Shown: piece by piece, positions 8,426 through 24,644 of the stretch
Numbering within the stretch: position 1 is the stretch's first letter
Layout of the letters: every line of letters begins with the position of its first letter
NCBI GenBank assembly: GCA_016203175.1
Contig: JACQNH010000044.1
Location: forward strand, 6,426-38,425
Direction of reading: 5' to 3'
Origin: Candidatus Woesearchaeota archaeon
GTDB lineage: Archaea > Nanobdellota > Nanobdellia > SCGC-AAA011-G17 > JACQNH01
DNA length: 32,000 nucleotides
Notes under the pieces: generated by a model
What the model saw: only the letters and a program-made list of their open reading frames with translations
Databases searched by the model: none
Told to the model about the DNA's origin: nothing
Made by a program: the position numbers and the translations under genes

Positions 8426-8460
8426 TCTTTTTAACAGCTTTTAATAGAATAAATCAAACT

Positions 8461-8470: not shown

Positions 8471-8574
8471 TCTGGCGCGTCTATGAAATATACATTACAG
8501 TGCAAAAAATTCTTCAAAATTTTAATAGTATGAGCCCTATAAGTGAAAGTTACACTGTCAAAACCACATTAAAA

Positions 8575-9676: not shown

Positions 9677-10405
9677 TTACCTCTTCACAACATATTTTAT
9701 CTCAAAAGTTTCAACATCTCCACGATAAAATAATTTCTTACCCGCATCAACCATAACAATAACATAATCCATTTTATCATCAAAAGAAACATTTAATCTA
9801 CTTAAGTCAAAAGGGGAATTATTCAAGCATTTATTCAAATTTGTCTTTTCAACCTTAACACAATCCCTAATTAAACCAAATAACCTAAAACTATCTTCAA
9901 AAAAATTAAAATCTTTAAGCTCAATACTAAATTCAGGCTCTATTTTAAACCAAATATCCTTATCTTCATCAAAAATTTCAACACTTTTACCTTTTCCAGT
10001 AATTTTATCAGTTATTTGAACCTCTTTTTCTTCAAATTCTTTATAATTTAAATTTTTAAAATCTATAATTAAGTCATTTAAATTTTTTAAGAATTCTTTT
10101 TTTAATTCACCTTTAAAATCAGGCTTAGAACTCGTTTTAGTTCCTATAGGCTCACTTAATTTACTCCAACCACCATTTTTCCCTAATCTCAATAAACTTC
10201 TCTTATAAGCCTCTAAAGCAAAATAATTCAAATTAAAATTTATTTCATCTCCAATTTGATATAATTTCAATAACCTAACCTCATCGCTCCCATAATAATT
10301 CTTTCCTAAAGTACCTTTGCTAGTAACTTGATACTCTATTAACAAAAATATAGCTACTATAAACCCAATACTTGCTATAATCATTAAAAACCCTTTCTTA
10401 TTCAT
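9677..10405 (-). CDS. prepilin-like protein (class III signal peptide)
   Basis: The N-terminus is MNKKG/FLMIIASIGFIVAIFLLI. It is the last gene of the pilin operon. Its ATG overlaps the upstream stop by 8 nt. Confidence 0.6.
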   Translation of the reverse strand: MNKKGFLMIIASIGFIVAIFLLIEYQVTSKGTLGKNYYGSDEVRLLKLYQIGDEINFNLNYFALEAYKRSLLRLGKNGGWSKLSEPIGTKTSSKPDFKGELKKEFLKNLNDLIIDFKNLNYKEFEEKEVQITDKITGKGKSVEIFDEDKDIWFKIEPEFSIELKDFNFFEDSFRLFGLIRDCVKVEKTNLNKCLNNSPFDLSRLNVSFDDKMDYVIVMVDAGKKLFYRGDVETFEIKYVVKR

Positions 10406-11126
10406 AAAATCTCCTCCCTATAATACAAGAATGTAAATCCACAGTTATATCCCCATCATAATTCTTACTTTTCAAGCTAGAATGTCCATAAGAACGATAA
10501 AAATACTTATTTCCTGAAAAACCAGAAGATTCTAAGCACCATTCAGCTTCAGAAACATCATCAACAGAAAAAAGATCCTTATTTCTAGATTCAATAATAT
10601 TTATAGTTGGTTCACGTAATACTTCAGGTGGGCTTCTAGAAAAACCTTTATTTATAATCCTAATAAAATAAAAAGTACCAAGCTTTTCAAATCTAAAAAT
10701 TAAAGTATAATCAGGAGTAAATTCAAAATTAATAGATGCTTCAGATGTATACTGATGTGGATAAATTACTCTAAAATAGTTTACAATCTTTACTAAAATT
10801 TCTTTACTTTCTTTTAACTTATCAGAATAAACAGCAGCAATATAAAAGAAGTCCACAACTGTACTATCCTCATCTAAACCAATTTTCACTAGCTTAGACA
10901 AATCTTCTTTTCCTAAAATAGAACCTAAATTAGTATTCAAAAAAGAAATTAAATCATTCTTAATGTCAATAGAAGCAGCATCCTCAAGACCTTGATTAGC
11001 TTGTATTGTAAATCCATTTATTGTAGAGATTAACAAAACAACTCCAACTATAGAAAGTAAAAAAGCTAGTAACAAATCTCCGAATATATCCTCTGTTTGT
11101 CCTTTTTTATTTAGTTTAATCCCCAT
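10398..11126 (-). CDS. prepilin-like protein (class III signal peptide)
   Basis: The N-terminus is MGIKLNKKG/QTEDIFGDLLLAFLLSIVGVVLLI. It overlaps both neighbouring genes. Confidence 0.6.
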   Translation of the reverse strand: MGIKLNKKGQTEDIFGDLLLAFLLSIVGVVLLISTINGFTIQANQGLEDAASIDIKNDLISFLNTNLGSILGKEDLSKLVKIGLDEDSTVVDFFYIAAVYSDKLKESKEILVKIVNYFRVIYPHQYTSEASINFEFTPDYTLIFRFEKLGTFYFIRIINKGFSRSPPEVLREPTINIIESRNKDLFSVDDVSEAEWCLESSGFSGNKYFYRSYGHSSLKSKNYDGDITVDLHSCIIGRRFYE

Positions 11127-11568
11127 ATTCTAACCCCATAACTAAAGTTTTTAATTCCCCATTATTATCTACTAAAACTAAAGCTTTATCGTCTCTTCTT
11201 TTATAACCGCCAATACCATTAGTTATTTCACTTTTAAACAGCTTACCGCCATCAAACAAATTAATCTTAATAGATTTCTTAAAATTACTAGTGCATTTTC
11301 TTAAATTTTCAGAAGTAAATTTATTTAAATCAATTACAGGAATTTTATAAAGATCAGAAGCAAAACAATTAGAACTATGAGTTAAAACATATTTAATTGC
11401 ACTCCCCTCTATAAAATCTTTAGTTTTAAAAGTTTCAGCCTTCATATTTACCAATAAACCATAAAAAGTAACAAAAACAAAAGTTAAAAAAACAGAAGCC
11501 ATAAATATGTACAAAGCCTTCCTTCCTAAATCATAATCACCTTTTTTATTCAAGATCAGTTTTCTCAT
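11116..11568 (-). CDS. prepilin-like protein (class III signal peptide)
   Basis: The N-terminus is MRKLILNKKG/DYDLGRKALYIFMASVFLTFVFVTF. It overlaps the upstream gene by 23 nt. Confidence 0.6.
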   Translation of the reverse strand: MRKLILNKKGDYDLGRKALYIFMASVFLTFVFVTFYGLLVNMKAETFKTKDFIEGSAIKYVLTHSSNCFASDLYKIPVIDLNKFTSENLRKCTSNFKKSIKINLFDGGKLFKSEITNGIGGYKRRDDKALVLVDNNGELKTLVMGLEYGD

Positions 11569-11902
11569 AAATTATAAACCTTCCACCTTTTTTTTCAATA
11601 ATCAATTTCTTTGATCCTAAATTATTAATAATCTTAGTATTTGTTCTTTCTAAATCCACATCATCTCCAGTTATTTTAACGCCATTTCCAACAATATAAG
11701 CTATACTTGCATCCCCATCTGCATTTTTAATTAAAGTCTTGCCCAAATTCAACTGCTCAGATACAGATAAAGCATATCCTTTACTTTCAGCACCAAAAAC
11801 CTGATTTAAAGCAAAAACCATAACTAAAAAAAATAAAAATCCTCCTATAACCTGAAATAGATTCATAGTCTCCAAAACTACAGCATCACCTTTTTTATTC
11901 AT
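11546..11902 (-). CDS. prepilin-like protein (class III signal peptide)
   Basis: The N-terminus is MNKKG/DAVVLETMNLFQVIGGFLFFLVMVFAL. A GAGG SD lies 8 nt upstream of the ATG. Confidence 0.65.
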   Translation of the reverse strand: MNKKGDAVVLETMNLFQVIGGFLFFLVMVFALNQVFGAESKGYALSVSEQLNLGKTLIKNADGDASIAYIVGNGVKITGDDVDLERTNTKIINNLGSKKLIIEKKGGRFIIYEKTDLE

Positions 11903-11929
11903 ATTTTTGCCTCATTTTATTTTGCTAAT

Positions 11930-11964
11930 TTTTCTTTTCCAAGGTTTTCTTTTCTAAAGAAAAG
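11930..11964. repeat. intergenic element copy B: TTTTCTTTT-CCAAGG-TTTTCTTTT-ct-AAAGAAAA
   Basis: The architecture matches copy A, with direct 9-mers at 11930..11938 and 11945..11953 and an inverted 8-mer at 11956..11963. An 8-bp hairpin is retained despite two single-base indels relative to copy A. Confidence 0.7.
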
Positions 11965-11982
11965 TTAGTTTAAATAAATTTC

Positions 11983-13371
11983 TCATTTAGTTGCAGTTAT
12001 ATCGACTTGCGAAATTGGAAAAGTCTTATCATATAAACAAACCTTTCCAGGATTTTTAGGGTCAGATCTAAATTCTAAATCAGTTTTAACCAGATTTTCA
12101 AAAGAATCCTGGTCTTCATAAATATTATCTCCTACAAGATTAGCTATAGCATCAATTTTCAAATCACCACTTCTAAAACTAAAACTAGGAGCACCATCTG
12201 AAGAAGGATCTTTTACCAAAGGATAAACACCTATAAAATCAGGATTAAATACATCTTTTGGAGTCAATAATAAATATTTAAATTCCCTTTCTTTCTCTCT
12301 ACCATTAAATTTACCTAAAAAAGTCTTCTTTTCATTAAAACACAAAGATATAGAATCAATATGCCCCAAATTAATAAATTTAGTATAACTAGTTTTAGTA
12401 CCTTCTGGAAAGATAAGTCGAAAAACTTCTGCTAAAAATTCAAAACCTTCAACTCGCCCCCTTGCAACCTTATTCTTGAATACAGAAATTGCAAGATTAA
12501 AATCCATCCCTTTTTCAGATATTAAAAAAACAGGAGAAAAAATATTCATAACAGCTATTTGATCTGTACTTTTAAAAAACCAATAAGAGCCAACTTTACT
12601 CCCCTGTAAATATAACCTTAATAACAAACTTTTAAAATAATCACTTTGAAGACCAGTAATAGATTCTTTAATATTCTCTTCCAAAATATTTAGTGTCTCA
12701 AAATCAAGCACCCTAAAACCATCGCCTAAAAATACTTCAACAGAATTTAATGAATCATAAAATTTAATTTTTACAGGAACCAAATTAATTGTCTTCTCTA
12801 CATCAAGCTCTAAACTAAATTCAGTACCCCCTTTCCCACCCTTTCCAAAAAAAGCCCCACCTAAACCCAAGGGGCAGTCTATATGATTTATCTCATTTGT
12901 AATCTTAACTAAACCACAATGGGATAATAAATTTTGATCAAAAGGAACACATTTGGCTCTTTTACAAGAAAACTGATCCAAATCTTCAATAAAATCTTCA
13001 CCAAACCCAGGATCTTTTATTTCAGTATTCACAATATTCCCACATTCACAAATACAACTTTTACCTTCACATTCAACATTTTGAGGCTTTGATATTAAAA
13101 AAGAACTAGTTAAAAGATCCCTAAAAAATTTAAACGCATATTTATCATCTTTCCCATAAACAACAACAGGCTTATTAAAATCACAATCAAAACTAATCTC
13201 TTTTCCAGGATTCTTTATAGCCTCTTGAACATTACTAACCAACAAACCAAAACAATCACGCTCAAAACCTAAAAAAAGTTTTATACCATATATTGCTATA
13301 GTACCCATAATTAAAAATAAAATTAATCCAACAACGAAACTTAAACTTTCAGCTTGTCCTCTTTTAAACAT
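11983..13371 (-). CDS. large prepilin-like protein with a Cys-rich ectodomain (candidate minor pilin or tip adhesin)
   Basis: The N-terminus is MFKRG/QAESLSFVVGLILFLIMGTIAIYGI. A Cys-rich segment follows (DCFG, FDCDF, ECEGKSCICECGN, FSCKRAKCVP, SHCG, IDCPLG), then about 290 aa without Cys. Confidence 0.6.
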   Translation of the reverse strand: MFKRGQAESLSFVVGLILFLIMGTIAIYGIKLFLGFERDCFGLLVSNVQEAIKNPGKEISFDCDFNKPVVVYGKDDKYAFKFFRDLLTSSFLISKPQNVECEGKSCICECGNIVNTEIKDPGFGEDFIEDLDQFSCKRAKCVPFDQNLLSHCGLVKITNEINHIDCPLGLGGAFFGKGGKGGTEFSLELDVEKTINLVPVKIKFYDSLNSVEVFLGDGFRVLDFETLNILEENIKESITGLQSDYFKSLLLRLYLQGSKVGSYWFFKSTDQIAVMNIFSPVFLISEKGMDFNLAISVFKNKVARGRVEGFEFLAEVFRLIFPEGTKTSYTKFINLGHIDSISLCFNEKKTFLGKFNGREKEREFKYLLLTPKDVFNPDFIGVYPLVKDPSSDGAPSFSFRSGDLKIDAIANLVGDNIYEDQDSFENLVKTDLEFRSDPKNPGKVCLYDKTFPISQVDITATK

Positions 13372-13380
13372 TTCATCACC

Positions 13381-13545
13381 TTAAATTTTTGGCCACAATT
13401 TTAAAATATCACTCCAAAATCCCTTTATAGTCTCTCCAAACTTTCCAGTAACACCATATAATGCAATTAAAACAACAACTAAAACAACTAAAGCAATTGC
13501 AGCTACAATAATCCAGTTTATCTCTAAATCCCCTTTTTTGTCCAT
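13381..13545 (-). CDS. mini prepilin-like protein (54 aa); not in the ORF track
   Basis: Hand translation gives MDKKG/DLEINWIIVAAIALVVLVVVLIALYGVTGKFGETIKGFWSDILKLWPKI*. It has the same KKG plus hydrophobic-helix signature as its neighbours. It ends 9 nt before the next ATG. Confidence 0.6.
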   Translation of the reverse strand: MDKKGDLEINWIIVAAIALVVLVVVLIALYGVTGKFGETIKGFWSDILKLWPKI

Positions 13546-13579
13546 AAATTAATTAATAAAATTAGTTATATAAATGTTT

Positions 13580-13954
13580 TCATGTACATTTAGTAATTGT
13601 TACACAACTAACACCTAAATCTAATTCTTTTGTTAGTTTTCCAGGCTTATTAGATACACTACTACACTTATAAATTTCATCTTCACTACTATATTTCTTA
13701 TCTTTATCCCTATCAATCCAATAAAAAGCATTACAATAATTTGATTTATCATCTAAACTGCAAAAAGCTTGGCATTGATTTCTCCACAAATTCAACTGTT
13801 GCTGACTTACTTGAATAGTTTCAGGCACTCCACCCAATAGCCTTTCAGCTCCACCAGTAAAAAATACCAAAGCAATAACTAAAACAACTAAACCTATAGC
13901 TGCGATTATAATAAAATTCAAAGATAATTCAGCCCCTTTTTTACCTAAAGCCAT
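13580..13954 (-). CDS. prepilin (candidate major pilin; first gene of the distal pilin operon)
   Basis: The N-terminus is MALGKKG/AELSLNFIIIAAIGLVVLVIALVFF. The globular domain is short, giving 124 aa in total, with 6 Cys. It is promoter-proximal. Confidence 0.7.
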   Translation of the reverse strand: MALGKKGAELSLNFIIIAAIGLVVLVIALVFFTGGAERLLGGVPETIQVSQQQLNLWRNQCQAFCSLDDKSNYCNAFYWIDRDKDKKYSSEDEIYKCSSVSNKPGKLTKELDLGVSCVTITKCT

Positions 13955-14005
13955 AAAACTTCAATACCAGTTATCTATTTAAATATTTCTAATTTGTATT
14001 TAATA

Positions 14006-14782
14006 ATGAATAAAATCAACCTAGAAAAGCCAAATATCGAATTTTTAATAAATAAAGGCTTTAAATGTTTAGATCTTCATATGCATTCAAATTTCTCAGA
14101 TGGCTCTTCAACACCAGAAGAAATTGCCAAAATAGCAGAAAAAAAGAATCTAATAATCTCCATAACTGACCATAATGAAATAGAGGGTGTTAAAAAAGCA
14201 ATAGAAATTAACAAAAACATAATAATCCCAGGAATAGAATTAACATCAAGAAATTCCAAAGACATACTAGTTTATTTTTACAACTTTAAAGACCTGGAAG
14301 ACTTTTACAATAAACACATTAAAAATAATAAAATTCATCCAGGAAAAGGTTTTGATCTAAAATGTTTAAAACTTTCAATGAAATCTATTTTAAATTATCT
14401 TAAAAATTATAAATGTATAAAAGTTATTCCTCATCCATTCGCATTAAAACCAAAAACAAATTATAGGTATTTCAAAAAAAGACCCCAGTTATTAAGAAAA
14501 ATGGATGCAATAGAAGTTTTACAATGCATTCAAACAAGAAAAAAAACAATAAAGTCAATTGGATGGGCAGAATCTATAAATAAACCAATGCTCGGTGGTT
14601 CAGACTCGCATACGCCAGAAACAATAGGCTCAGTTATAACAGCAGTGAAAGCAAAAGATATAAAAGAAATCTTAGATCAGATTAAAAAAGGAAAAACATT
14701 TATTTATGGTTTAGAACTCCCTTTATATCAAAAAATGAAAATAATGTTAAGATTGTTATTCAGAAACCTAAAATTAAAATGA
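14006..14782 (+). CDS. PHP-domain metal-dependent phosphoesterase
   Basis: The motifs LDLHMHSNFSDGS, ISITDHNEIEG, VIPHPF and GGSDSHTPETIG are the PHP family His/Asp motifs, in order. The tracked start at 13994 is a TTG, so I prefer the ATG at 14006 (MNKINLEK). Confidence 0.8.
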   Translation: MNKINLEKPNIEFLINKGFKCLDLHMHSNFSDGSSTPEEIAKIAEKKNLIISITDHNEIEGVKKAIEINKNIIIPGIELTSRNSKDILVYFYNFKDLEDFYNKHIKNNKIHPGKGFDLKCLKLSMKSILNYLKNYKCIKVIPHPFALKPKTNYRYFKKRPQLLRKMDAIEVLQCIQTRKKTIKSIGWAESINKPMLGGSDSHTPETIGSVITAVKAKDIKEILDQIKKGKTFIYGLELPLYQKMKIMLRLLFRNLKLK

Positions 14783-15327
14783 TAAACTTAATAATAAAAG
14801 CAATTTATTTCTTTCTTCCAGCCTATTTCGCAAACATGGCTCCACCAATTATTTTTAATATTCCATTTATCAAAAAAATTAATTACCCCATGGATTTTAA
14901 AAGAAATTTATTCAAAAAAAGGATCTTTGGTGATCATAAGACCATTTTAGGCTCTTTATCTGGTATTTTAGCATCAATTTTAATCTTCTTAATTCAAAAA
15001 TATTTATTTAATTTCAATTTCTTTCAAAACATTTCTTTAATAAACTACAATGAATTCAATCTACTATTTCCACTTTTATTAGGTTTTGGAGCAATTTCAG
15101 GGGATTTAATTAAAAGTTTCATAAAAAGAAGATTAAACATAAAACCAGGTGCATCTTTTCCAGTATTTGACCAGTTAGACTTTGTAATTGGAGCATTAAT
15201 ATTTTTATATTTTATCTACTTACCTTCAATAAGTATAATTTTGACTTTAATAATTTTAACACCTATATTATGTATTTTAATAAATTTTATAGCATTTAAA
15301 TTAAAATTAAAAAAAGTCTGGTATTAA
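14779..15327 (+). CDS. carS: CDP-archaeol synthase (CDP-2,3-bis-O-geranylgeranyl-sn-glycerol synthase, DUF46 family)
   Basis: The motifs are FLPAYFANMAPPI, RIFGDHKTILGSLSG, GDLIKSFIKRRLNIKPG and PVFDQLDFVIGA. It is a membrane protein of about 180 aa. There is an ATGA overlap with the PHP gene. Confidence 0.8.
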   Translation: MINLIIKAIYFFLPAYFANMAPPIIFNIPFIKKINYPMDFKRNLFKKRIFGDHKTILGSLSGILASILIFLIQKYLFNFNFFQNISLINYNEFNLLFPLLLGFGAISGDLIKSFIKRRLNIKPGASFPVFDQLDFVIGALIFLYFIYLPSISIILTLIILTPILCILINFIAFKLKLKKVWY

Positions 15328-16107
15328 TCACCTCTTTCTATATTGATAAGGATAAGCCCCAGTTTTTAATTTTGTAATTTCAAACTTATTTGTATCCCGA
15401 ATAAAATCATCAAGTAAACCATTAGTGTCCTTATCAAAAATAAAACCAAGATTACTAACTGCAACATTGTTATAATTAAAGAAAGTATAAGCTAAGATTG
15501 GAGCATAGAGTTTTTGACTTAAAACATAATCTGGTAAAATTCTCGCATTCAATCCTTGACGATCATAATAAATTTGCAAATCATTTTCATAAAAATTAAT
15601 AAAATCGCTAACAATAAAACCCCCTTTAGAACCAACAAAGTAACCAAATTCAACTCCAATATCATTTTTAAAAGATTTTTTCTGTATAAACTTATTTTGT
15701 AACTTATCAAATAATAAAAAAACTAAAACCTTTTTATCTTTAGAATTTTGAACATGAATTTCATAATCTTCTTTTAATAGTACTAATTTTCTTAAACCCA
15801 TAATTTTCATCTTGTCAGGTTCTTTAATTACACTTTCAAAAGCACTTACAACCTCATCAAAAGCCTTTTTAGCATTTGCAGCAGGATCACCATAAACTCT
15901 TTCAATACCGCTTCCTTTCAAACCAAAAACCTCTTTAAATTGACTAACAATATCGCTTGTTGTACCTTTTAATTCACCTCTAAACTTTGTAGCAGTTTCA
16001 CCTGTAGAAAAAGATAAATAACCAATCCCAACAATAAAAATTAATACTAAAGCTATTCCACCATAAACCAATTCCTCATGCTCAACAGCCCCTTTTTTTG
16101 TAAACAT
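15328..16107 (-). CDS. prepilin-like protein (class III signal peptide)
   Basis: Starting at the ATG at 16107, the N-terminus is MFTKKG/AVEHEELVYGGIALVLIFIVGIGYL. The tracked start at 16119 is a TTG and would overlap the preceding mini-ORF. Confidence 0.6.
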   Translation of the reverse strand: MFTKKGAVEHEELVYGGIALVLIFIVGIGYLSFSTGETATKFRGELKGTTSDIVSQFKEVFGLKGSGIERVYGDPAANAKKAFDEVVSAFESVIKEPDKMKIMGLRKLVLLKEDYEIHVQNSKDKKVLVFLLFDKLQNKFIQKKSFKNDIGVEFGYFVGSKGGFIVSDFINFYENDLQIYYDRQGLNARILPDYVLSQKLYAPILAYTFFNYNNVAVSNLGFIFDKDTNGLLDDFIRDTNKFEITKLKTGAYPYQYRKR

Positions 16108-16109
16108 TT

Positions 16110-16268
16110 TCAACCCCAAAAAGTTCCTTTAAATACTTCTTTAAAATAATTTATTACTCCTTCCCTAATTTCATTTGATATTAAAAAATATATAATAACA
16201 ATAATTAATATTATAACTAATGCAACAATATAATCCCAGTGTATCGCTCCTCTTTTAAATTTAAGCAC
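16110..16268 (-). CDS. mini prepilin-like protein (52 aa, GTG start); not in the ORF track
   Basis: Hand translation gives (GTG)M-LKFKRG/AIHWDYIVALVIILIIVIIYFLISNEIREGVINYFKEVFKGTFWG*. The GTG overlaps the upstream stop (GTGCTTAA). The stop TGA at 16112..16110 lies 2 nt before the next ATG. No ATG is available in this frame. Confidence 0.5.
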   Translation of the reverse strand: MLKFKRGAIHWDYIVALVIILIIVIIYFLISNEIREGVINYFKEVFKGTFWG

Positions 16269-17007
16269 TTTTAACCCCTCCAAAAGCTAATAAATTTCTC
16301 TGTGATATATAATCCTTTCCCCCGTCATAAGCATAATCATCTGTAAATATTAATCTATCAGGATCATCCATTTCAAAACCATCATAAAATCTTATATAAT
16401 ATCTACAACTAATTTTTTTACATTCTTCAGCATCCTTATCAAAAATAGATTTGCCTAAAAATCTGTTATCAATCCTTAGTTTATTCCCCCATAACCCAGT
16501 TCTTTCCACATACTCAACAAAACTTTCTTCTGTATAACTATCATCATTAAAAAGTTTGTTTAGAGGTATATTTAATGCATTCAAAAATTCTGTTACACTT
16601 ATCTCATCACTTTTGTCTAAATCAATATTAAAATTAAAACAAGTATTATAACTATTAACAGCAAAAAACCACTCCTTCAATAATTTTGGATGAGGAGTAT
16701 TTCCAAGCATTTCCCAACATCTCCCCATTAATTTAACAATATCCTTAATAACTTCATCTTTATCCCCCTTTGCTATTTGATCTTTACTTCCACAAGCCAA
16801 AGGCATTGTCGCAGGAAGAAATTTACCAAAAAAAGAAACCAAATTACCATTAATCCTCCCACTAATAGCACAAGCCAATTCCCCCCCATAAAGACTAAAT
16901 TGCTTCTGACCTAAATAAACAATAGAACCAGCCACTACTGCAAAAATAATTACTAATACTATACCCAACATAACATTTGGACCCCCATCTCCTTTTTTAA
17001 GCAACAT
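16261..17007 (-). CDS. prepilin-like protein (class III signal peptide)
   Basis: The N-terminus is MLLKKG/DGGPNVMLGIVLVIIFAVVAGSIVYL. It is the first pilin-like gene downstream of the platform gene. Confidence 0.6.
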   Translation of the reverse strand: MLLKKGDGGPNVMLGIVLVIIFAVVAGSIVYLGQKQFSLYGGELACAISGRINGNLVSFFGKFLPATMPLACGSKDQIAKGDKDEVIKDIVKLMGRCWEMLGNTPHPKLLKEWFFAVNSYNTCFNFNIDLDKSDEISVTEFLNALNIPLNKLFNDDSYTEESFVEYVERTGLWGNKLRIDNRFLGKSIFDKDAEECKKISCRYYIRFYDGFEMDDPDRLIFTDDYAYDGGKDYISQRNLLAFGGVKSA

Positions 17008-17092
17008 AACTTCTTAACCCCCATATAACAAGTAACATTATCACTACTAACAATAAACTCAAGATCAATATCACAATATATCCAGTTTCCAT
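16997..17092 (-). CDS. possible 31-aa single-pass membrane micro-ORF
   Basis: The sequence is METGYIVILILSLLLVVIMLLVIWGLRSYVA*. It fills the gap between the platform gene (stop at 17095) and the next pilin gene and overlaps that gene's ATG. It has no KKG motif. It is called only from position and hydrophobicity. Confidence 0.3.
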   Translation of the reverse strand: METGYIVILILSLLLVVIMLLVIWGLRSYVA

Positions 17093-17094
17093 TT

Positions 17095-19215
17095 TTACAC
17101 CCCTATATTTACCCTAGCAATTGTGCTTGCAAGCAAATTAAATATTAATGTTACAACACCCGCTATTATAAAATAAGTTAAAACTGCTCTATATAAATTT
17201 TTTCCAGTTACAAATAATTGACTTATCTTATCAACACCATTTTCAATTCCATTGCTTAAAATACTTAAAATTATAGTTACCTCAACAACATAAATCCCAA
17301 CAATTAATTGAAAATAAAAAGGGGGGATTACCTTCTCAATAGGAAATAAACCTAATAAAGTGCTTACATTAAAAACACCTCCAGCTTCTTGAGCTCCTAA
17401 AATAGCAGTAAATTGCTTAGCTAATAAACCAATTATTGTAGTTATCATAGTTCCTATACCTACAACAACACCACCAATAACAGGAGTCAAAAAACTAATC
17501 TGCCCTTTCATACTGCTTATAACATCTGCTAATAAATCTTTTAATCTTTCAACAACCAAATGAACCTGTCTAAAATAATTTGAAATACTAATTAAACTTT
17601 GAGCAACTATACTCCCTCCTTTTCTACTTGCTTCCAACATAACCTTCATACTCGATTCAATTAAAGGAGAATTAAAATACCTTATAGCTCCTCTTTCAGA
17701 ATTAAATATAGCCTCTTGCAAACTCATCCCAACCATTTCTAAATTATTACTTACCAAAGCAAAAAATTCACCACTAGCAGTTCCTCTTAAACTTTCAGCT
17801 ACTTTTCTAAAAGAAACCTCAACAGGCAATCCATCTCCAACCCTATTTCCTAATTGAAATAAACTCCCAGAAAATTCCACTTCTAATTTCTGTATATCTT
17901 CAAAAGTTTTAACCAATACGCTACTTCTTCTTTTGCAATAAGCACCATAACCAAAAGCCAAACCCAAAGGAATTAACAAACTAAACAATACAGCCCCGAT
18001 ACCAAAAGGACCAAATTCACCACCCTCGCCACTTCTAAAATCCAAAAAACTTCCAACATCACTTCCCCCTATTCTTAATGGAATATCAAACTCAGGTATA
18101 ACTAAATGTATTATTAAAGGTAAAAAACCAATTAAAACTAAAAGCAATCCTATAACAAAACCAATAGTTTTTGATTCAGATATAACCTTTGGATCCTCTA
18201 AATATTTTACCTTACCTCCAAAACCAGTAGGACGATTATTTAATAAATTAGTTCCATAAAAATAAACTATCACAGGTAATGCAACATCATAAAAAAAACC
18301 AAGGACATACCATTTAACACCCAAAAAAGAACCTAATAAAGGTAATATAATCAATCCTAAAATTGGTAATACTACACCCAACATATGTAAATTTGTAACA
18401 GGATTTTTTAAATTTTGGGCATAATGCATCATTCCTTCATAACTTCCCTCTAACATAACATTCAATCCTTTTTCTAAAACCTCAATCCTTTTCTTCTCAG
18501 TTCCTTCATACAAACTCCCAGCAATCAACTGCATGCTTTCAACAAATTCTATATTCTTATCTTTCCATTGTTCCAGATAATTATCAACAGACTCTTTAAT
18601 TGTACTATATTTACCTATCTCAACATCCCAATAAATCTTCCTTAAATCTAAAGCTAATGAACCACCAACATGATCACCAGCAAATTTAATAGCTCTTTCA
18701 AAATTAGAAGTATGTCTCATATACATAACAACATACAAAACACACAAAACCATTCTATCACTAACCTCCATTCTGAATTTATTAGCAATTCTTAAGGGAT
18801 ACTTTCCCATTGGTTTAATCATAAAAACACCAAGACCCATAATTAAAAATATTAAAAAATAAAAAGAAATCCCAGGTAAATTTCCACCTAATAAACCATA
18901 AAAACCAAATCTTAAAACAAACAAAAAAATTCCAATTAATATTACCATCACAGCAAAACCCAAACCAAAACTTGCAGCTTCTTTAGGATTAATTAATAAA
19001 TGAGAAAATTCAATAGCTTTTTCAACTTTTTTCTCGCTTTCCTCATCTAATTTAACTGGAAAATATCTAACGCAAAACTTACAGGCCTTTTCATAAAACG
19101 TTAAGCCTCTACCTAAAACCTCTTCTCTAAAAACTAAATAATCCTTACTAAATATGCCCTCTTCTTCATTCTTATCTAAATTATACTTTTCTAAAACTTT
19201 ACTTATTCCTTCCAC
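17095..19215 (-). CDS. type IV pilus assembly platform membrane protein (FlaJ/TadC/PilC-like, two T2SSF-type domains)
   Basis: This is a polytopic membrane protein immediately downstream of the ATPase. It has two cytoplasmic helical domains: an N-terminal one, and a second reading FSGSLFQLGNRVGDGLPVEVSFRKVAE...GMSLQEAIFNSERGAIRYFNSPLIESSMKVMLEASRKGG. They alternate with TM bundles as in T2SSF proteins. The start is GTG, with a GAGG SD 5 nt upstream. Confidence 0.7.
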   Translation of the reverse strand: MEGISKVLEKYNLDKNEEEGIFSKDYLVFREEVLGRGLTFYEKACKFCVRYFPVKLDEESEKKVEKAIEFSHLLINPKEAASFGLGFAVMVILIGIFLFVLRFGFYGLLGGNLPGISFYFLIFLIMGLGVFMIKPMGKYPLRIANKFRMEVSDRMVLCVLYVVMYMRHTSNFERAIKFAGDHVGGSLALDLRKIYWDVEIGKYSTIKESVDNYLEQWKDKNIEFVESMQLIAGSLYEGTEKKRIEVLEKGLNVMLEGSYEGMMHYAQNLKNPVTNLHMLGVVLPILGLIILPLLGSFLGVKWYVLGFFYDVALPVIVYFYGTNLLNNRPTGFGGKVKYLEDPKVISESKTIGFVIGLLLVLIGFLPLIIHLVIPEFDIPLRIGGSDVGSFLDFRSGEGGEFGPFGIGAVLFSLLIPLGLAFGYGAYCKRRSSVLVKTFEDIQKLEVEFSGSLFQLGNRVGDGLPVEVSFRKVAESLRGTASGEFFALVSNNLEMVGMSLQEAIFNSERGAIRYFNSPLIESSMKVMLEASRKGGSIVAQSLISISNYFRQVHLVVERLKDLLADVISSMKGQISFLTPVIGGVVVGIGTMITTIIGLLAKQFTAILGAQEAGGVFNVSTLLGLFPIEKVIPPFYFQLIVGIYVVEVTIILSILSNGIENGVDKISQLFVTGKNLYRAVLTYFIIAGVVTLIFNLLASTIARVNIGV

Positions 19216-19227
19216 TTTTCCTCTTTT

Positions 19228-22200
19228 TTATTCTTTTTCCAAAGCTGTCCTCTCACCTTGAATACCTTTTTTTAACCATTCAACCCATTCATTATAAATT
19301 TTTTTACTATCTAAAACACCAGTCATACTTTTTACATTTTCAGAAACAATATGGAACATATCATTAGCTTGAACAATAAAATCAGCCTCTAAAATATCAG
19401 GTCTGTTTAACTTTAGACTATAATCCAATAAAGTTTGTTTTATTTTAGCTCTTAATAAAATATTATCCCAAACAGCAGCCCAATTTCCAGCCCAGTCTTT
19501 AACATTCCCAGCTATAGATTTCAAAATTTCACTATCTCCATTTTTTAAATCATCTGTAATCTCTAATTGATCTGTCTTAGGATTATATCTCATTAAATCT
19601 ACAAAACCACCCTCTTTCAAAGGATCTTCTTCCCAATGTTTTCTTACCTCAGTAATTTGTAAAACCCTTCTAAAATAGCTCAAACCATCGGGGCTTCTAA
19701 CAGGATTTGATAGCACAATTATATCTGTAGCTTTAAAACTTGTTCTTGGAACACCTAAATCATTTACAACTCTATCAAATACACCATAAGGACTTTCGCC
19801 ATGAATTGTACCTGCAACGACATTAGCTAACGCACCTATGCGCATGGACTCAAAAAGTGACTTTGCTTCAACACTTCTTATTTCACCTACAATTAAACTA
19901 CTATCCCCCATTCTTAAACTCGTTCTTATCCCCTCATCAGCGCCAACTTCAGTTCCACCAGTAGCTAAAGCACTTCTTACTTTCATCTGCTGAACATTAT
20001 AACCTAATCTTCTATATGCTTCTAAAGGAATCTCTAAAGTATCTTCAATCGAAACTATTCTGTATTTCCTCATAATCTCAGCAATAGCACTTCCCAAAAG
20101 ACTAGTATTATGAGCAATAATCCCATTAGCAACAAAATTATGTGTCCTATCAACAGTTAAATCATAAACATAATCATCTATTTTATTAACAACTTCAATA
20201 GATACAATTTCATCCCAAAAAATATCAGAATGTGCTAATTGCTCAGTCTCACAAATTAAATCAAAAACTTCTTTCGCAACTACCTTATCATAAATATTTA
20301 AAATAGTTTTAACAATAGATTGAAATACTTCTAAAGTAGATACACCTTTTCCCATAAAGAAATTTGTTACAGTTGTAATAGAAACATCATCAGATAAAAA
20401 TTCAGAATTAGAAATATTAAGCTCATTCCTCAAATAGGAAATGAGTATACCAACATCAAGATAGCTTATTAAAAATTTCATAGAGTTTAGTTTACTAAGT
20501 AAATCAACAGCTTCTTTAAAATTTGATAAAAGCTTACTCCTTAATTCAACTAGATAACTTTCAAGTAATATTTGTTTTTGCACAGGTATATTGATGTTAT
20601 CTGGACCATAAGCATAATATTTCAAAGTAGTTTCAGGAATACTAGTAGCTTTAGAAATATCAACGTAAGAAACTAAACCTGCATTAACGAAAAGCGGTAC
20701 ATTTCTCATGGTCAAGTCTAAATTCTTTAAAAACTCCAGCTCAACAAAACGTTTATTAAAAAAATTAATAATAGAAGAAGTTCGAGCTAAATTGCTAATA
20801 TTACCAATTCTAAAATTTTTTAATATTTTTCTAACTCCTCTTTCGGAAAAACCTAAATTAGCAGCTAAAGTACCATAAGATAAACCAAAAAGCTCTTTCA
20901 ATCTAGCAATATCTTTAAAATACAAGCTACCATCAAAATTAACAAAATTTCTTAAATTATTTACTTTTTCATTTAAAGAAAGAAGTTTTATATATCTTTC
21001 TTTATAAAAACATATAATCTTTGAAAACCAATTTCTTGTTACTCTATATTGATCATTTTCATAAGACCAATAATCCTTTCCAATATCTTTCCTTAAATCC
21101 AATGGTGAAACTCTAAGTTTCTTCCTTAATAATCTAAAAATTTCATTTCCTTGGGGGATTGTATCAACATTTGTATTTTCTATATATTTTTTTGTTACAA
21201 GCGAATTTAAAACTTCTTTTTTAAAAGGATGCGAAAAACCAATATTATTAAAGAAGTCTACAACACAACGGCCATAAATATAATTTCTATAATAAGGCAC
21301 ACCATTTATTATTTTTAAACAATTAAAAGTAGTTATACCAAATCGCAATAAAGCAAATCTTAGGTACTCAATCATTGATTTACTTGCCGATACAAGTTCT
21401 ATCATTCTCTTATCTTTACTAACAGAACCATCTGTATCAAAATAACCTCTTAAAAAAGCAGCTAAAACCTCATTCTTTGATTTGAGTATAACCTGAGGAA
21501 TAATAATTTTATTTGCCTTATTTCCTAGTGGAATCTCAAAAACCTCACTCAAAAGACTAGAAAGGATTCTAGAGGATACTTGAACAACAGTAGTAGTCCT
21601 AGATTTAAAAACCCTATAGGGCACATTGAACATTTTTATTAATCTAATATACTTCTCTCTAAGTTCTACACAGCTATTATGAAATTCTAATTTTGTTTTA
21701 TCAATATGACCATCCCCTAAAATTAAACCAACAAATTCAGCAATGTCAGCATCAACCAATTTAGGAAAGTAAACAATTGAAGAATTAGTTTTTCCCTTTA
21801 AAATATAATAATCATCATTTTCTCTAATAAGATAAGGATGCCCTTTTAAATCAATCGAAATTTCTTTACCAATAACTTCAATTTTTCTAGGGGAAGCAAT
21901 TAAATCCTTAATTTTAAGTTCATCAGCTCTCTTATTTTTTAAACCCTTATAATAAACAAAGTAAGGATGCTCACAAGTAGTAATTATCTCCTTTCCGCTC
22001 TTTGTTCTTATTTTAATAAGTTTGTCAGGTGAACTTCTTTTCCAAACATCTGTAATCTTTTGATTAGATATCTGAAATCCATCTAAAGACTTAACACTTA
22101 AATCAGAGATAGGCTCATAAATATAACCATCATCAATCTGTTTTTTCTCTTTTCCAACTAAATCCTTAATCTTCTTTATACCACCATCAGCAAACTGTAT

Positions 22201-23613
22201 TAAAGTATCCCCACCAACACACTTTCCTGAACTTCTTGTACCAGCAAAAATTAAGGACCTGTTTCCATCGATTACAAAACTTAACAAACCAGCAGCCATA
22301 CTATTAATCATTTTGTTCTTCATAAATAAAGGAAAAGTCCATGGCTTATCCCTATGTCTCCTGAATGCATAAGCCAAACCAAAAGGATTTAATGGACTAG
22401 TTATAATTGCAACCCTCGCTCTTGATTTAGGCAAAATTAATTCCGTATCTAAAATAGGATTTGCCTCATCTAACGCCCTTCCACTTAAAATTCTAAATTT
22501 AGTTGCCCACCCTTGAACATCATCATTACTAGGATAAATATTTGTAAAACAATGACCATAATCTTGATGAACAACATAAATAGGATTCTCACCAACAGGA
22601 GCATTAATTGTTATATCTTGTATCTTCTCATCTTCTAACAAAACTTCAATCAAACCAAAACCAATAGTATAACGAACTAAAATCGAAGATAAATCATTTA
22701 ATTTTTCAATACTAATATCCATTTCTCTTTGATCAGCCAATTCAGTTAATAAATCTCGAGCAATATTAAAAAAAGTATTCCTAACCCTTTCAGGCTCTAA
22801 AAAGTCTTCTTCTCTAGGTTGATGTTCACGAATTATTCCCCTAGCAGTCTCCAATAAACTATATTCATCCTCACTTAGTTTAAATTCAGGGGGATTTAAT
22901 TGATACAAATATTTTATGTCTCCTTTAATCCTGTAAACCCCAACATCACTTTGATTAAAACTATAAACATCTAATTGCTCTGCATCTAAAGGAGGCTGTA
23001 CTCTTAATCTAGAAAGCATAAAATCAGGAGTAATAGCAGCCCTAAACACTAATCGATAAATACTTCTATCACCAATCTCAAAACCATCTAATTCATCCCT
23101 TGTAGCATTTATCAAAGCAGTATTATTTAACAATCCATACAAATAATCTAAAAGATCAAAAAAAGATTTCTCATAGGGGTTCTCAGCTTTTTTTAGTCTT
23201 ATTCTACTTTCCCTCCTCAATCTTTTTATTTCAACAAAAGCACTTATAGGATCACTTTTTAATAAACCATAAACAATAGTCTGTAAATTTGTTAATCTTT
23301 CACCCAAATAAGAAGAGCAGTTAGGGTCCAAAACCAAACTCCAAATACCTCTTTGTTTTACTAAGGCATTATAAACATTAGAGATTTCAACTAATAACTG
23401 GGTTTGATGATAATTGTAAATATAATTCTTATTTAAATAAAAAATTATTCTCTTAACTCCTGGAAATTCAATTAATCTTTCAATGGTTTTTAACATACAG
23501 ACAGGATCATCTTCTAAACTAGGGCTATGACCTGCTATCAAACAATCTATCTTTAAAATCTCTTCCTGCCCTTCCCTAACAATCTGAAACTCTCTTTTTT
23601 CAACTTCAACCAT
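19228..23613 (-). CDS. type II/IV secretion-family ATPase (FlaI/PilB/GspE-like pilus assembly ATPase), intein-containing precursor
   Basis: Walker A is split as AGTRSSGK-[intein]-TSLLGS. Downstream motifs are RIVSIEDTLEI, the Asp-box/Walker B SSLIVGEIRSVEA and the His-box VAGTIHGESP. The exteins are 464 + 292 aa. Confidence 0.85.
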   Translation of the reverse strand: MVEVEKREFQIVREGQEEILKIDCLIAGHSPSLEDDPVCMLKTIERLIEFPGVKRIIFYLNKNYIYNYHQTQLLVEISNVYNALVKQRGIWSLVLDPNCSSYLGERLTNLQTIVYGLLKSDPISAFVEIKRLRRESRIRLKKAENPYEKSFFDLLDYLYGLLNNTALINATRDELDGFEIGDRSIYRLVFRAAITPDFMLSRLRVQPPLDAEQLDVYSFNQSDVGVYRIKGDIKYLYQLNPPEFKLSEDEYSLLETARGIIREHQPREEDFLEPERVRNTFFNIARDLLTELADQREMDISIEKLNDLSSILVRYTIGFGLIEVLLEDEKIQDITINAPVGENPIYVVHQDYGHCFTNIYPSNDDVQGWATKFRILSGRALDEANPILDTELILPKSRARVAIITSPLNPFGLAYAFRRHRDKPWTFPLFMKNKMINSMAAGLLSFVIDGNRSLIFAGTRSSGKCVGGDTLIQFADGGIKKIKDLVGKEKKQIDDGYIYEPISDLSVKSLDGFQISNQKITDVWKRSSPDKLIKIRTKSGKEIITTCEHPYFVYYKGLKNKRADELKIKDLIASPRKIEVIGKEISIDLKGHPYLIRENDDYYILKGKTNSSIVYFPKLVDADIAEFVGLILGDGHIDKTKLEFHNSCVELREKYIRLIKMFNVPYRVFKSRTTTVVQVSSRILSSLLSEVFEIPLGNKANKIIIPQVILKSKNEVLAAFLRGYFDTDGSVSKDKRMIELVSASKSMIEYLRFALLRFGITTFNCLKIINGVPYYRNYIYGRCVVDFFNNIGFSHPFKKEVLNSLVTKKYIENTNVDTIPQGNEIFRLLRKKLRVSPLDLRKDIGKDYWSYENDQYRVTRNWFSKIICFYKERYIKLLSLNEKVNNLRNFVNFDGSLYFKDIARLKELFGLSYGTLAANLGFSERGVRKILKNFRIGNISNLARTSSIINFFNKRFVELEFLKNLDLTMRNVPLFVNAGLVSYVDISKATSIPETTLKYYAYGPDNINIPVQKQILLESYLVELRSKLLSNFKEAVDLLSKLNSMKFLISYLDVGILISYLRNELNISNSEFLSDDVSITTVTNFFMGKGVSTLEVFQSIVKTILNIYDKVVAKEVFDLICETEQLAHSDIFWDEIVSIEVVNKIDDYVYDLTVDRTHNFVANGIIAHNTSLLGSAIAEIMRKYRIVSIEDTLEIPLEAYRRLGYNVQQMKVRSALATGGTEVGADEGIRTSLRMGDSSLIVGEIRSVEAKSLFESMRIGALANVVAGTIHGESPYGVFDRVVNDLGVPRTSFKATDIIVLSNPVRSPDGLSYFRRVLQITEVRKHWEEDPLKEGGFVDLMRYNPKTDQLEITDDLKNGDSEILKSIAGNVKDWAGNWAAVWDNILLRAKIKQTLLDYSLKLNRPDILEADFIVQANDMFHIVSENVKSMTGVLDSKKIYNEWVEWLKKGIQGERTALEKE
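20107..22221 (-). mobile_element. large (705-aa) LAGLIDADG intein in the P-loop of the pilus ATPase (aa 465-1169)
   Basis: Block A is CVGGDTLIQFADGG (Cys1) and block B is IITTCEHPYF (TxxH). The LAGLIDADG motifs are FVGLILGDGH and FLRGYFDTDGS. The C-terminal blocks are YVYDLTVDRTHNFVANGIIAHN, followed by Thr+1. Boundary codons were checked: TGT 22221..22219 and AAT 20109..20107. Excision restores GTRSSGKT. Confidence 0.85.
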
Positions 23614-23694: not shown

Positions 23695-24063
23695 ATGGTA
23701 TTAGAACAAACAAATGAAGCAGAATATTTTTTAGCTTCAGCAGGAACAAGATTATCAATTCTAGAAAATAAGTACAATATGATTAGTGAAAAATTACTAA
23801 TTATAAACCAGAATATGATCACAGAGTATAAAAGGTTATTAACAGAAATAAGCTCATTTGGAAGAGAAATTAAGGATTTAAAATCACAAATAAACACTTT
23901 AAAAGAATCCTTAACATTAATTTCAAGAGAATTAACATTTTTTGCAAGAAAAGAATCTGTTAAAGAATTAGAAAAGTATATTAACCTCTGGCAACCACTA
24001 AATTTCACAACAGAAGACGATGTTAAAAGAATAATAAGAGAAGAAAAAAGAGGTAAAAAATAA
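23695..24063 (+). CDS. coiled-coil protein, unknown function
   Basis: The 122-aa protein is heptad-rich (ENKYNMISEKLLIINQNMITEYKRLLTEISSFGREIKDLKSQINTLKESL). It has an AGAGG SD. It is divergent from the ATPase operon and overlaps the next gene by 1 nt (TAATG). Confidence 0.55.
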   Translation: MVLEQTNEAEYFLASAGTRLSILENKYNMISEKLLIINQNMITEYKRLLTEISSFGREIKDLKSQINTLKESLTLISRELTFFARKESVKELEKYINLWQPLNFTTEDDVKRIIREEKRGKK

Positions 24064-24644
24064 TGCCATCACCTTTAGAATTAGCAGTTGAACTCCAGAA
24101 TAAAGGATTGGGTGAAGAAAGAATAGCATCAGAACTAGCAACACAAGGTTTCTCAAAAGAACAAATTTCTCAAGCTATAACACAAGCAAATGTTAAAACA
24201 CAAGTAGAAGAAATTCCAGAACCCCCCCCAGCACCTGAAGCACCTATTACAATACAAGAAACCCCTCAACAAATTCCAGAACCACAAGTAGGACAATTCC
24301 AGACCTATACATCTACAACATCCCAACAAATAGAACAAATAGCAGAAGAAATTATCCAAGAAAAATGGGAAAGATTTGTAGAAACATTTGGCGACTTACC
24401 TATCTGGAAAGAAAAAATTGAAACAGATGTTTTGTCAATTAAACAAGAGATCGTCAGAACACAAGATAGATTAAATGGCATTGAAAGAGCATTAGCATCT
24501 AAAGTACAAGAATATTCTGAATCCATAACAGATCTAACAGCAGAAATGAAAGCACTATCAAAATTATTAAATCAAATCTTACAACCATTAACATCTAATA
24601 TAAAGGAACTACAAAGATTAACTGAAAAATTTAAGAAAGAATAA
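24063..24644 (+). CDS. three-part protein: small helical N-domain, Pro/Glu/Gln-rich linker and C-terminal coiled coil; unknown function
   Basis: The N-domain is PSPLELAVELQNKGLGEERIASELATQGFSKEQISQAI. The linker is EEIPEPPPAPEAPITIQETPQQIPEPQ. The coiled coil is KQEIVRTQDRLNGIERALASKVQEYSESITDLTAEMKALSKLL. Confidence 0.55.
   Translation: MPSPLELAVELQNKGLGEERIASELATQGFSKEQISQAITQANVKTQVEEIPEPPPAPEAPITIQETPQQIPEPQVGQFQTYTSTTSQQIEQIAEEIIQEKWERFVETFGDLPIWKEKIETDVLSIKQEIVRTQDRLNGIERALASKVQEYSESITDLTAEMKALSKLLNQILQPLTSNIKELQRLTEKFKKE

Follow-up and report, generated by a model that had tools for sequence, protein, structure and literature searches.

A candidate type IV filament assembly locus with ten class III signal-peptide genes in a Woesearchaeota-type archaeon

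We analyzed a 32-kb stretch of DNA (hereafter the window; positions 6,426 to 38,425 of contig JACQNH010000044.1) from a Candidatus Woesearchaeota archaeon and found on its minus strand a gene cluster that, in our estimation, very probably encodes a complete type IV filament assembly machine, comparable to type IV pilus (T4P) systems, of a Woesearchaeota-type DPANN archaeon. The cluster comprises, in order, an intein-bearing ATPase, a 706-aa membrane protein, a 31-aa micro-ORF (open reading frame) and ten pilin-like genes. Four features point to such a machine: a secretion ATPase, an adjacent platform protein whose kinship is recognizable by an indirect route, an A24-family prepilin peptidase encoded elsewhere in the window, and a class III leader motif in ten of the ten array products. 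These bear out the original prediction, made from the DNA letters, of a locus resembling those of type IV pili and rich in class III signal-peptide proteins; the ORFs it listed are all present where it placed them. The diversity of archaeal T4P is well catalogued (PMC4858521; bioRxiv 10.64898/2026.04.22.720090), and our literature search found no paper describing this woesearchaeal locus. The locus has a platform family missed by standard models and two previously unnoted coiled-coil partners. Judged by sequence, the pilin set appears to be lineage-specific and the core to be shared with the 4F type of archaeal T4P.

The ATPase and its inteins

The first gene of the cluster (19228..23613, minus strand) specifies a 1461-aa precursor of a secretion, or T4P assembly, ATPase. 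Its proposed membership in the GspE/FlaI/CpaF family is upheld by the Pfam T2SSE model, by matches in the PDB and by its catalytic motifs. The precursor is interrupted by an intein of 705 aa that contains a LAGLIDADG homing-endonuclease domain (20107..22221, minus strand; Pfam Intein_splicing, E = 4.6e-31; LAGLIDADG_3, E = 6.9e-21) and falls precisely within the Walker A loop (GTRSSGK|C ... HN|TSLL, with the junctions read from the sequence). The spliced extein has 756 residues, with its catalytic core flanked by approximately 300 N-terminal residues and by a C-terminal extension, and it recovers T2SSE with E = 8e-14 and, among the PDB entries, Archaeoglobus afGspE (4e-26), CpaF (1e-19) and FlaI (7e-14). 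The NCBIfam models for FlaI (2.6e-36) and TadA (1.9e-32) also match, both far under their equivalog cut-offs (125 bits against a cut-off of 550 bits in the case of FlaI), and accordingly we regard this protein as a diverged member of the family, not as an archaellum motor. The Asp box (IEDTLEIP), Walker B (LIVGEIR) and His box (GTIHG) are all intact; the Walker A motif (GTRSSGK-T) is predicted to be complete only once the intein has been spliced out.

To place the locus in context we assembled a synteny set of 81 fetched related loci (denoted below by L numbers). An intein occupies the same Walker A site in L016, L023 and L037. Across the ATPase family three intein sites are seen, all of them in catalytic motifs, namely Walker A (GK|T), the Asp box (IED|T) and Walker B (GEIR|T), and at least one intein is present in 11 of the 75 loci with an ATPase (L006, L016, L023, L037, L038, L046, L057, L059, L063, L073 and L074). 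The intein-bearing orthologs have up to two inteins each and reach 1262-1979 aa, against approximately 760 aa for the intein-free forms. The window itself has three LAGLIDADG inteins within 24 kb, in a flavoprotein (400-3111, minus strand), in RadA (5281-7905, minus strand) and in the pilus ATPase, a density that is unusually high for a small genome.

The platform protein

The gene that follows the ATPase (17095..19215, minus strand) directly succeeds it in nearly all of the 81 related loci, and codes for a 706-aa polytopic membrane protein with about nine transmembrane (TM) segments and two cytoplasmic helical bundles. Its identification as a divergent TadC/T2SSF-like platform, which had been claimed in outline, is sustained by structural comparison and by transitive homology. 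The AlphaFold2 (AF2) model, with a mean predicted local confidence (pLDDT) of 78.7, is all-helical, and each of its two cytoplasmic bundles is followed by TM helices. Foldseek searches matched this model to EpsF and OutF in their cytoplasmic domains, with a probability of 0.97-1.0 and a target-normalised template-modelling score of 0.63-0.71 (root-mean-square deviation 3.2-4.4 Å over about 120 aligned columns), and to PilC as it stands in the T4aP machine model 3jc8, with a probability of 0.66.

The transitive route passes through the haloarchaea. A tblastn search of plasmids with the ATPase core recovered an ATPase of a Haloterrigena turkmenica plasmid at 41.6% identity, the others among the matches listed being at about 28-31%. 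Beside this Haloterrigena ATPase is encoded a protein annotated as 'secretion system protein', whose alignment to the window platform spans 532 residues with 23% identity (E = 2e-30). Its family is large, is encoded on haloarchaeal chromosomes and goes under the name TadC or T2SS F in different sources. In a profile-profile comparison by hhalign, the platform family and this haloarchaeal TadC family match with 99.9% probability (E = 6e-33, 541 columns), and 25 of 42 members of the latter show the Pfam T2SSF domain (PF00482; best E-value 2e-5, in the second repeat). A weak T2SSF match is also seen in 9 of 41 platform orthologs. When the platform profile was run against 1.84 billion representative sequences it gave 1315 matches, and the best 150 of the 1315 were all members of the family itself, with no T2SSF bridge among them. 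Taken together, the profile match to the haloarchaeal TadC family, the T2SSF matches of that family and the predicted fold argue that the platform is a highly diverged TadC/T2SSF protein.

Immediately after the platform lies the micro-ORF (16997..17092, minus strand), coding for a peptide of 31 aa with a single TM segment (METGYIVILIL...), which we include in the system on the basis of positional conservation: the ORF named in the original prediction is present, and 45 of 76 related loci have a TM-bearing ORF of 25-43 aa at the same place. Many of these positional equivalents start with M-x-KKG or KRG, a leader that is absent from the window's own copy. It is possible that the micro-ORF is a headless mini-pilin or else a small membrane subunit; the window copy may function unprocessed, or its leader may have been lost.

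The pilin-like array and the prepilin peptidase

All ten products of the array, as had been claimed for each of them, have a short basic leader whose [KR][KR]G motif lies in residues 1-12 and precedes a hydrophobic stretch approximately 20 residues long; none of the 18 other genes of the window has the motif (Fisher exact p = 7.6e-8). The N-termini quoted in the original prediction are exact, the acidic residue it placed near +1 to +6 in most products is a D or E in nine of the ten, and the sizes do extend to 462 aa, the smallest product having 52-57 aa depending on the start codon. The genes are densely packed, with start/stop overlaps of 8-23 nt as read from the coordinates, which is typical of an operon.

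Distant relatives conserve the [KR]G site in their orthologous arrays, and a leader consensus of M-N-K-K-G was obtained from 159 pilin-like ORFs in 19 related arrays, where the residue one before the -2 position is K in 136 of the 159; the invariant G/A at -1 and K/R at -2 of these ORFs are required by the detection rule. K/R at -2 and G/A at -1 agree with characterized archaeal cleavage sites, which read KG|Q in the Epd pilins and K[GA]|I in the Ups pilins (PMC4371748).

The peptidase that would act at these sites is a 285-aa member of the A24 family of class III signal (prepilin) peptidases at 3162..4019 (plus strand), 5.7 kb from the array. Its assignment stands, with Peptidase_A24 (PF01478) at 2.8e-7 and the NCBIfam FlaK model at 3e-8, under the equivalog cut-off for that model, and both catalytic motifs are present, namely D21 (in TDFKNREI) and GGGD83.

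The ten genes, all on the minus strand and each placed in the system by its leader and TM segment, fall into positions that are recognizable in the relatives. First comes p248 (16261..17007; MLLKKG|DGGPNVMLGIVLV...), a candidate minor pilin at the first place of the conserved array, where the size class is about 220-400 aa; it has no family match in Pfam or NCBIfam. It is followed by p57 (16110..16283; ..KFKRG|AIHWDYIVALVIIL...), a headless product of 52-57 aa with almost no ectodomain, whose orthologs in 11 loci have the common motif KKG-x-(A/I)WEYI, and by p263 (15328..16119; probable start MFTKKG|AVEHEELVYGGIALVL...), a candidate minor pilin at the third place. Next in order stand p124 (13580..13954; MALGKKG|AELSLNFIIIAAIGLVVLVIALVFFTGG...) and p54 (13381..13545; MDKKG|DLEINWIIVAAIALVVLVVVLIAL...); the latter is a headless short pilin-like product with orthologs in 17 loci and a cross-match to the p124 N-terminus, and is an alternative candidate for the major subunit. 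The sixth place, where sizes vary widely (184-682 aa), is taken by p462 (11983..13371; MFKRG|QAESLSFVVGLILFL...), the largest product, which is Cys-rich and a candidate tip or adhesin subunit. The remaining four are candidate minor pilins: p118 (11546..11902; MNKKG|DAVVLETMNLFQVIGGFLFF...), of a conserved 115-135-aa size class; p150 (11116..11568; ..LNKKG|DYDLGRKALYIFMASVFL...), with orthologs in 13 loci; p242a (10398..11126; ..LNKKG|QTEDIFGDLLLAFLLSIVG...); and the last gene of the array, p242b (9677..10405; MNKKG|FLMIIASIGFIVAIFLL...), whose place is occupied in most of the 19 relatives compared by a protein of a 236-299-aa class immediately before RPA.

In the relatives the micro-ORF and then about ten genes lie 3' of the platform, and their size classes, which are approximate, run in order 250-400, 50-75, 200-500, 120-145, 56-70, 184-682, 115-135, 130-175, 165-175 and 236-299 aa. 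The families themselves are fast-evolving: phmmer traces only p124 (35 loci), p54 (17), p150 (13) and p57 (11). Of these p124 is the most conserved, with the segment KKG|AELSLNFIIIAAIxLVVLxxAxxFFTGG nearly invariant across its orthologs and a variable, Cys-rich head. The Haloferax volcanii major pilins PilA1-6 are marked by a conserved H-domain (PMC4371748), and it is this likeness, a near-invariant N-terminal helix joined to a variable head, that leads us to regard p124 as the likely major subunit. The AF2 model of p124 (pLDDT 70) has a helix at residues 10-41 and a small alpha/beta head, and its profile found no sequence match in the PDB. Some 25-30 nt upstream there is a TATA-like box.

The composition of the array also invites a different view of its product, namely that the machine makes not a long adhesive pilus but a short pseudopilus or a 'bindosome'-like platform for the display or secretion of surface proteins, the large, variable class III proteins being its cargo or functional heads and not subunits of a filament. 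In favor of this view, most proteins of the array are of large size, evolve fast and bear no relation to known pilins; ten to eleven distinct class III proteins are many for a simple pilus; and archaeal type IV filament machines do serve class III substrate-binding proteins (bioRxiv 10.64898/2026.04.22.720090). However, Pfam shows no substrate-binding or enzymatic domain in any array protein, p124 combines small size with an invariant N-terminal helix, the hallmark of a polymerizing major pilin, and the order and size classes of the array are conserved in the manner of a structural set. We therefore consider this explanation unlikely, and continue with that of a filament.

Proposed mechanism and points that weigh against it

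We propose that ten, possibly eleven, prepilins would enter the membrane with their short basic leader (consensus MNKKG) remaining in the cytoplasm, and that the A24 aspartic peptidase would cleave them after the Gly. Splicing of the intein would restore the Walker A motif and thereby yield an active ATPase, a hexamer of which is envisaged as docking with the TadC-like platform at its cytoplasmic bundles. ATP-driven movement would then lift the processed pilins from the membrane, and their hydrophobic N-terminal helices would stack into a filament. In this assembly p124 would be the likely major subunit, the headless peptides of approximately 30-57 aa and the large, variable proteins of 248-462 aa could serve as minor, priming or tip subunits, and the coiled-coil proteins described below would probably be accessory scaffold or regulatory subunits. 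What the analysis establishes is the set of genes, their motifs, the homology of the core and the conservation of the locus. The processing, the formation of the filament and these subunit roles we infer from established T4P biology, and the biological role would most likely be adhesion or contact with a host cell.

Several observations weigh against this reconstruction. On the side of the platform, neither the single sequence nor a 41-sequence profile has a match in Pfam, NCBIfam or the sequences of the PDB; hhalign comparisons of the profile with single T2SSF proteins (a haloarchaeal PilC and Rhizobium etli TadB) are insignificant; no internal repeat is detectable by sequence; and the relation to T2SSF is indirect. 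On the side of the pilins, no product matches a family in Pfam (including Pilin_N and Class_IIIsignal), NCBIfam or the PDB, none matches the haloarchaeal 4F pilins, and the head of the p124 model, which is only moderately confident, has no fold match in the PDB. Moreover, hydrophilic residues occur between +2 and +6 at several of the sites, an atypical trait for archaeal class III signals. As to gene order, the peptidase is near the locus in only 2 of the 81 loci, so that its linkage is not conserved, and the ATPase-platform pair occurs without an adjacent array in L071, L075, L077-L079 and L081. In these array-less loci the downstream genes are unrelated and mostly on the other strand, and the pilins of the respective genomes must be encoded elsewhere or be absent.

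Some of these same points, that is the want of a family-level pilin match, the hydrophilic residues just past the Gly and the relatives that have the ATPase-platform pair without an adjacent array, would fit a reading in which the [KR][KR]G-plus-TM segments are uncleaved N-terminal membrane anchors, lying beside an ATPase/TadC pair that serves pilins encoded elsewhere. Yet a Gly at a fixed distance after K/R, conserved across families that otherwise have no common sequence, is hard to explain on such terms, and the motif is exclusive to the array, which is in tight translational coupling with the platform gene. Plain anchors are thus, to our mind, a highly improbable account, and the class III interpretation of the leaders is retained in what follows.

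Coiled-coil partners and the flanking genes

On the other side of the ATPase, beyond the range of the original prediction, which missed them, lie two genes that are transcribed divergently from it. The first, cc122 (23695..24063, plus strand), codes for a small cytoplasmic coiled-coil protein and starts 81 bp from the ATPase start. The second, cc193 (24063..24644, plus strand), codes for a cytoplasmic protein in which a P/E-rich linker joins a small helical domain at the N-terminus to a coiled coil at the C-terminus, and which has no TM segment. An ortholog of cc122 is found in 59 of the 81 related loci, on the opposite strand and typically with a spacer of 60-100 bp to the ATPase start; one of cc193 is found in 56, always beside cc122 and the ATPase. 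Most of the loci that lack the pair are too short on the upstream side of the ATPase. Both proteins give only generic coiled-coil matches in Pfam and no specific family, and no homology is detectable between cc193, cc122 and the haloarchaeal coiled-coil protein considered below. Weak matches to FlaC_arch (E = 0.002-0.02, in 4 of 40 members) were judged non-specific.

Beyond cc193, a conserved block follows in 44 of 45 relatives (e.g. L002, 3950-6628), with genes for one protein of the TraB/PrgY family, one with a PRC barrel and three membrane proteins of approximately 180 aa that are paralogs of one another and fall in no known family; the block may belong to the pilus system or to cell division. 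The window has in its stead genes for a metallophosphoesterase and a TPR protein, and a giant gene. That the coiled-coil pair stayed by the ATPase even where the neighboring block is missing supports its linkage to the pilus genes, and cc122 and cc193 are probably accessory scaffold or regulatory subunits of the machine.

The giant gene (25915-32000, minus strand) codes for more than 2028 aa and runs off the right end of the window. It has four PEGA domains, a dockerin-like domain, a CarboxypepD_reg domain and TM segments near residue 1300. The suggestion that this adhesin-like gene is a partner of the pilus locus does not survive comparison with the relatives, where it is not beside the locus, and we have rejected it as a part of the system.

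The array is split in the window by a pair of genes in the opposite orientation (13994..15327, plus strand), a PHP phosphoesterase (13994-14782; Pfam PHP and PHP_C) and a CDP-archaeol synthase, CarS (14779-15327; CarS-like, 1.3e-38). This pair was correctly noted in the original prediction, and the locus was described on that ground as 'two-part'. Such a layout can be dismissed as a design feature of the system: apart from the window, PHP/CarS is seen at this position in L002 and L003, the two closest relatives, and in none of the other arrays, and it is therefore a recent insertion that stands outside the system.

The wider setting is archaeal. The DNA of the window is low in GC (about 30%) and encodes archaeal housekeeping proteins, including RadA with an intein, aEF-1beta, RPA and CDP-archaeol synthase, along with a geranylgeranyl-reductase-like flavoprotein that also has an intein. 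The close homologs of the window proteins are from metagenome-assembled genomes (MAGs) labelled Woesearchaeota, Nanoarchaeota or Nanoarchaeia, which marks the organism as a Woesearchaeota-type member of the DPANN.

Distribution and the RPA-RadA neighborhood

In a distribution scan with one genome per GTDB species, the platform was found in at least 546 species genomes, including the complete genomes AR20 (CP010426) and CP066683. The proteins of the cluster are labelled 'hypothetical' in nearly all cases in the related genomes. As the platform, the pilin-like proteins and the coiled-coil proteins have no specific Pfam or NCBIfam model, standard annotation likely misses most of the system.

At its 3' end the array stops just before RPA in the 19 loci where RPA was found downstream. 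RPA was found in 24 of the 81 loci and RadA in 15, with RadA a few genes past RPA (5281-9585, minus strand, in the window). A haloarchaeal plasmid T4P locus, L084, likewise has RPA beside its pilin genes. Between RPA and RadA the window has an 88-aa ORF (7902-8168, minus strand) that overlaps the RadA start; it is conserved in nine related loci and has no family match.

This neighborhood could be a coincidence or a hint of a DNA-related role. A filament that is chiefly a competence-type pilus for DNA uptake, coupled to RPA and RadA and feeding an organism of reduced biosynthesis, would accord with the recurrent position of RPA after the last pilin gene. DNA uptake by T4P is, furthermore, established in bacteria (PMC7212644), and Ups pili promote DNA exchange in the Sulfolobales (PMC11178815). 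Nevertheless, RPA and RadA are housekeeping genes, whose neighborhood in a small genome need not mean a common function, and Pfam reveals neither a ComEC-like channel nor a DNA-receptor domain in the window. An uptake pilus would in any event be a subtype of the T4P-like machine proposed here, not an exclusive alternative to it. We hold such a specialization to be quite unlikely, somewhat more so than the pseudopilus, and adhesion or host contact to be the more likely role of the filament.

Implications

Woesearchaeota and other DPANN archaea are abundant, uncultivated and thought to be attached to hosts, and their means of attachment are largely unknown. If a filament is indeed made, the machine would be a prime candidate for the apparatus by which such episymbionts attach to their hosts or acquire DNA or nutrients. 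More broadly, we entertain, as a tentative possibility that we would rate at rather less than even, that the locus specifies a lineage-wide surface organelle of the Woesearchaeota/Nanoarchaeia, forming a T4P branch of its own, the sister of the haloarchaeal 4F systems, with about 11 pilins, an unrecognized platform family and a new coiled-coil pair. On that account the DPANN would have been scored as being without T4P because nearly all of the parts are annotated as 'hypothetical'. Independently of this possibility, the conservation seen here indicates that a complete and strongly conserved T4P-like machine is near-universal in the lineage. A groundwater study that examined ultra-small cells by cryo-transmission electron microscopy, and that shares its sampling campaign with several of the MAGs recovered in our searches, reported T4P components to be 'missing in DPANN genomes' and used pili to identify cells of the Candidate Phyla Radiation (CPR) (10.1101/2020.05.14.094862). 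'Has pili' or 'lacks pil genes' might accordingly be a risky criterion for telling CPR bacteria from DPANN archaea. The candidate pilins and the likely major subunit offer concrete targets for metaproteomics, cryo-electron tomography and heterologous expression.

Comparison with known systems

The archaellum is akin to the window locus in having an ATPase of the same superfamily (with FlaI as the top, sub-threshold NCBIfam match), a platform, class III signal peptides and an A24 peptidase. The contention that the locus is not an archaellum is nonetheless vindicated: Pfam detects no archaellin (PF01917), ArlH/FlaH, ArlF/G (FlaF/G), ArlCDE or ArlX among the genes of the 32-kb window, and that reading is rejected for want of archaellin, FlaH, FlaF and FlaG.

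With the bacterial Tad/Flp systems (CpaF-TadB-TadC) the window locus has in common an ATPase for which CpaF is among the best matches of solved structure, short subunits that are headless in the manner of Flp, and several minor subunits akin to pseudopilins. Tad/Flp has, as features of its own, two single-domain platform proteins, a G|XXXXEY prepilin site and an outer-membrane secretin, and the identity between the ATPases is only about 28%.

The Epd system (system 1) of Methanococcus maripaludis and its relatives, which has been reported in some DPANN, resembles the locus in its KG|Q-type sites, in acidic residues near +5 and in its many minor pilins; its very short, headless major pilin EpdE is comparable to p54, p57 and the micro-ORF. 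It differs in having two separate platform genes and a large, dedicated EppA peptidase that requires Gln at +1, whereas the window has a single, two-repeat platform gene of 706 aa and a variable +1 residue (A/D/Q/F), with Q in only two of the ten products. Among the references compared, a set that has no Epd ATPase, the best outside match of the window ATPase is the haloarchaeal, 4F-type enzyme.

It is this last type that offers the closest relatives outside the lineage. The window ATPase scores 223 bits with the haloarchaeal ATPase, against 112 with CpaF and 103 with a canonical haloarchaeal PilB. The haloarchaeal loci in question have, in order, a coiled-coil DUF7310 protein, a small, N-terminally anchored DUF7311 protein, an ATPase with a Cys-rich N-terminus and a TadC of approximately 570 aa, followed by three pilin-like DUFs and a surface protein of approximately 1000 aa (DUF7286), with a CARDB protein nearby. 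The Haloarcula hispanica 4F locus (Makarova 2016, Table S4; PMC4858521) is given as arCOG07564, arCOG10216, the arCOG01818 ATPase and the 9-TM arCOG01814 TadC, continuing with three pilin arCOGs and arCOG02945; arCOG02981 includes CARDB proteins. The order and sizes of the haloarchaeal loci equal those of the H. hispanica 4F locus, which supports a 4F-type identity for the core of the window locus. The platform falls in one family with the haloarchaeal TadC of approximately 570 aa, which by size, TM count and neighbors would correspond to arCOG01814. A plasmid-borne version of the haloarchaeal 4F-type core, on Haloterrigena turkmenica plasmid pHTUR04 (L083; NC_013747.1, 16292-21159), has DUF7382, DUF7311, the ATPase and TadC; its core is then followed by a DEAD-box helicase, and a chromosomal locus of Natrinema has there pilin genes and the surface protein of approximately 1000 aa.

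The resemblance lies, first, in the ATPase, with its extended N-terminal domain, and in the 9-TM TadC-like platform, which is in both cases so divergent that Pfam T2SSF misses or barely detects it; the haloarchaeal and methanomicrobial 4F versions of these two proteins are their nearest outside relatives. Second, it lies in the layout, with a cytoplasmic coiled-coil gene beside the ATPase and several pilin-like genes after the platform. The pilins, by contrast, have no detectable similarity: no counterpart of the 4F pilin families (arCOG02981, arCOG10216, arCOG04673 and others) or of the coiled-coil arCOG07564 was recognized among the window proteins, none of which has a Pfam match to DUF728x, DUF7310 or DUF7311, and p124 shows no similarity to the haloarchaeal DUF7311 pilin. 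The two divergent coiled-coil genes of the window, as opposed to one co-directional gene in 4F, are alike to it in position only. The 4F loci have a small pilin gene upstream of the ATPase and a DUF7286-type protein of approximately 1000 aa, neither of which is seen in the window, which has in turn 10-11 downstream class III genes, with leaders of the MNKKG type, against three to four in 4F. The host lineages are Woesearchaeota for the window locus and Halobacteria for 4F.

A recent survey records the DPANN for system 1, 4A and Aap-like systems only, with 4F mainly haloarchaeal (Sivabalasarma and Albers, 2026; bioRxiv 10.64898/2026.04.22.720090). The original prediction held that the clade could not be decided by eye; a provisional answer can now be given, in that the core formed by the ATPase and the platform appears to be of the subclade-4F lineage and a DPANN counterpart of the haloarchaeal 4F, an assignment drawn from the reciprocal best similarity of two proteins and from the layout, not from a phylogeny, which tempers it. 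4F-type ATPases were earlier noted in nanoarchaea, for which the authors could not identify the cognate pilins (Makarova 2016; PMC4858521). If our reading is true, the array described here would supply these 'missing cognate pilins' of the nanoarchaeal 4F-type ATPases.

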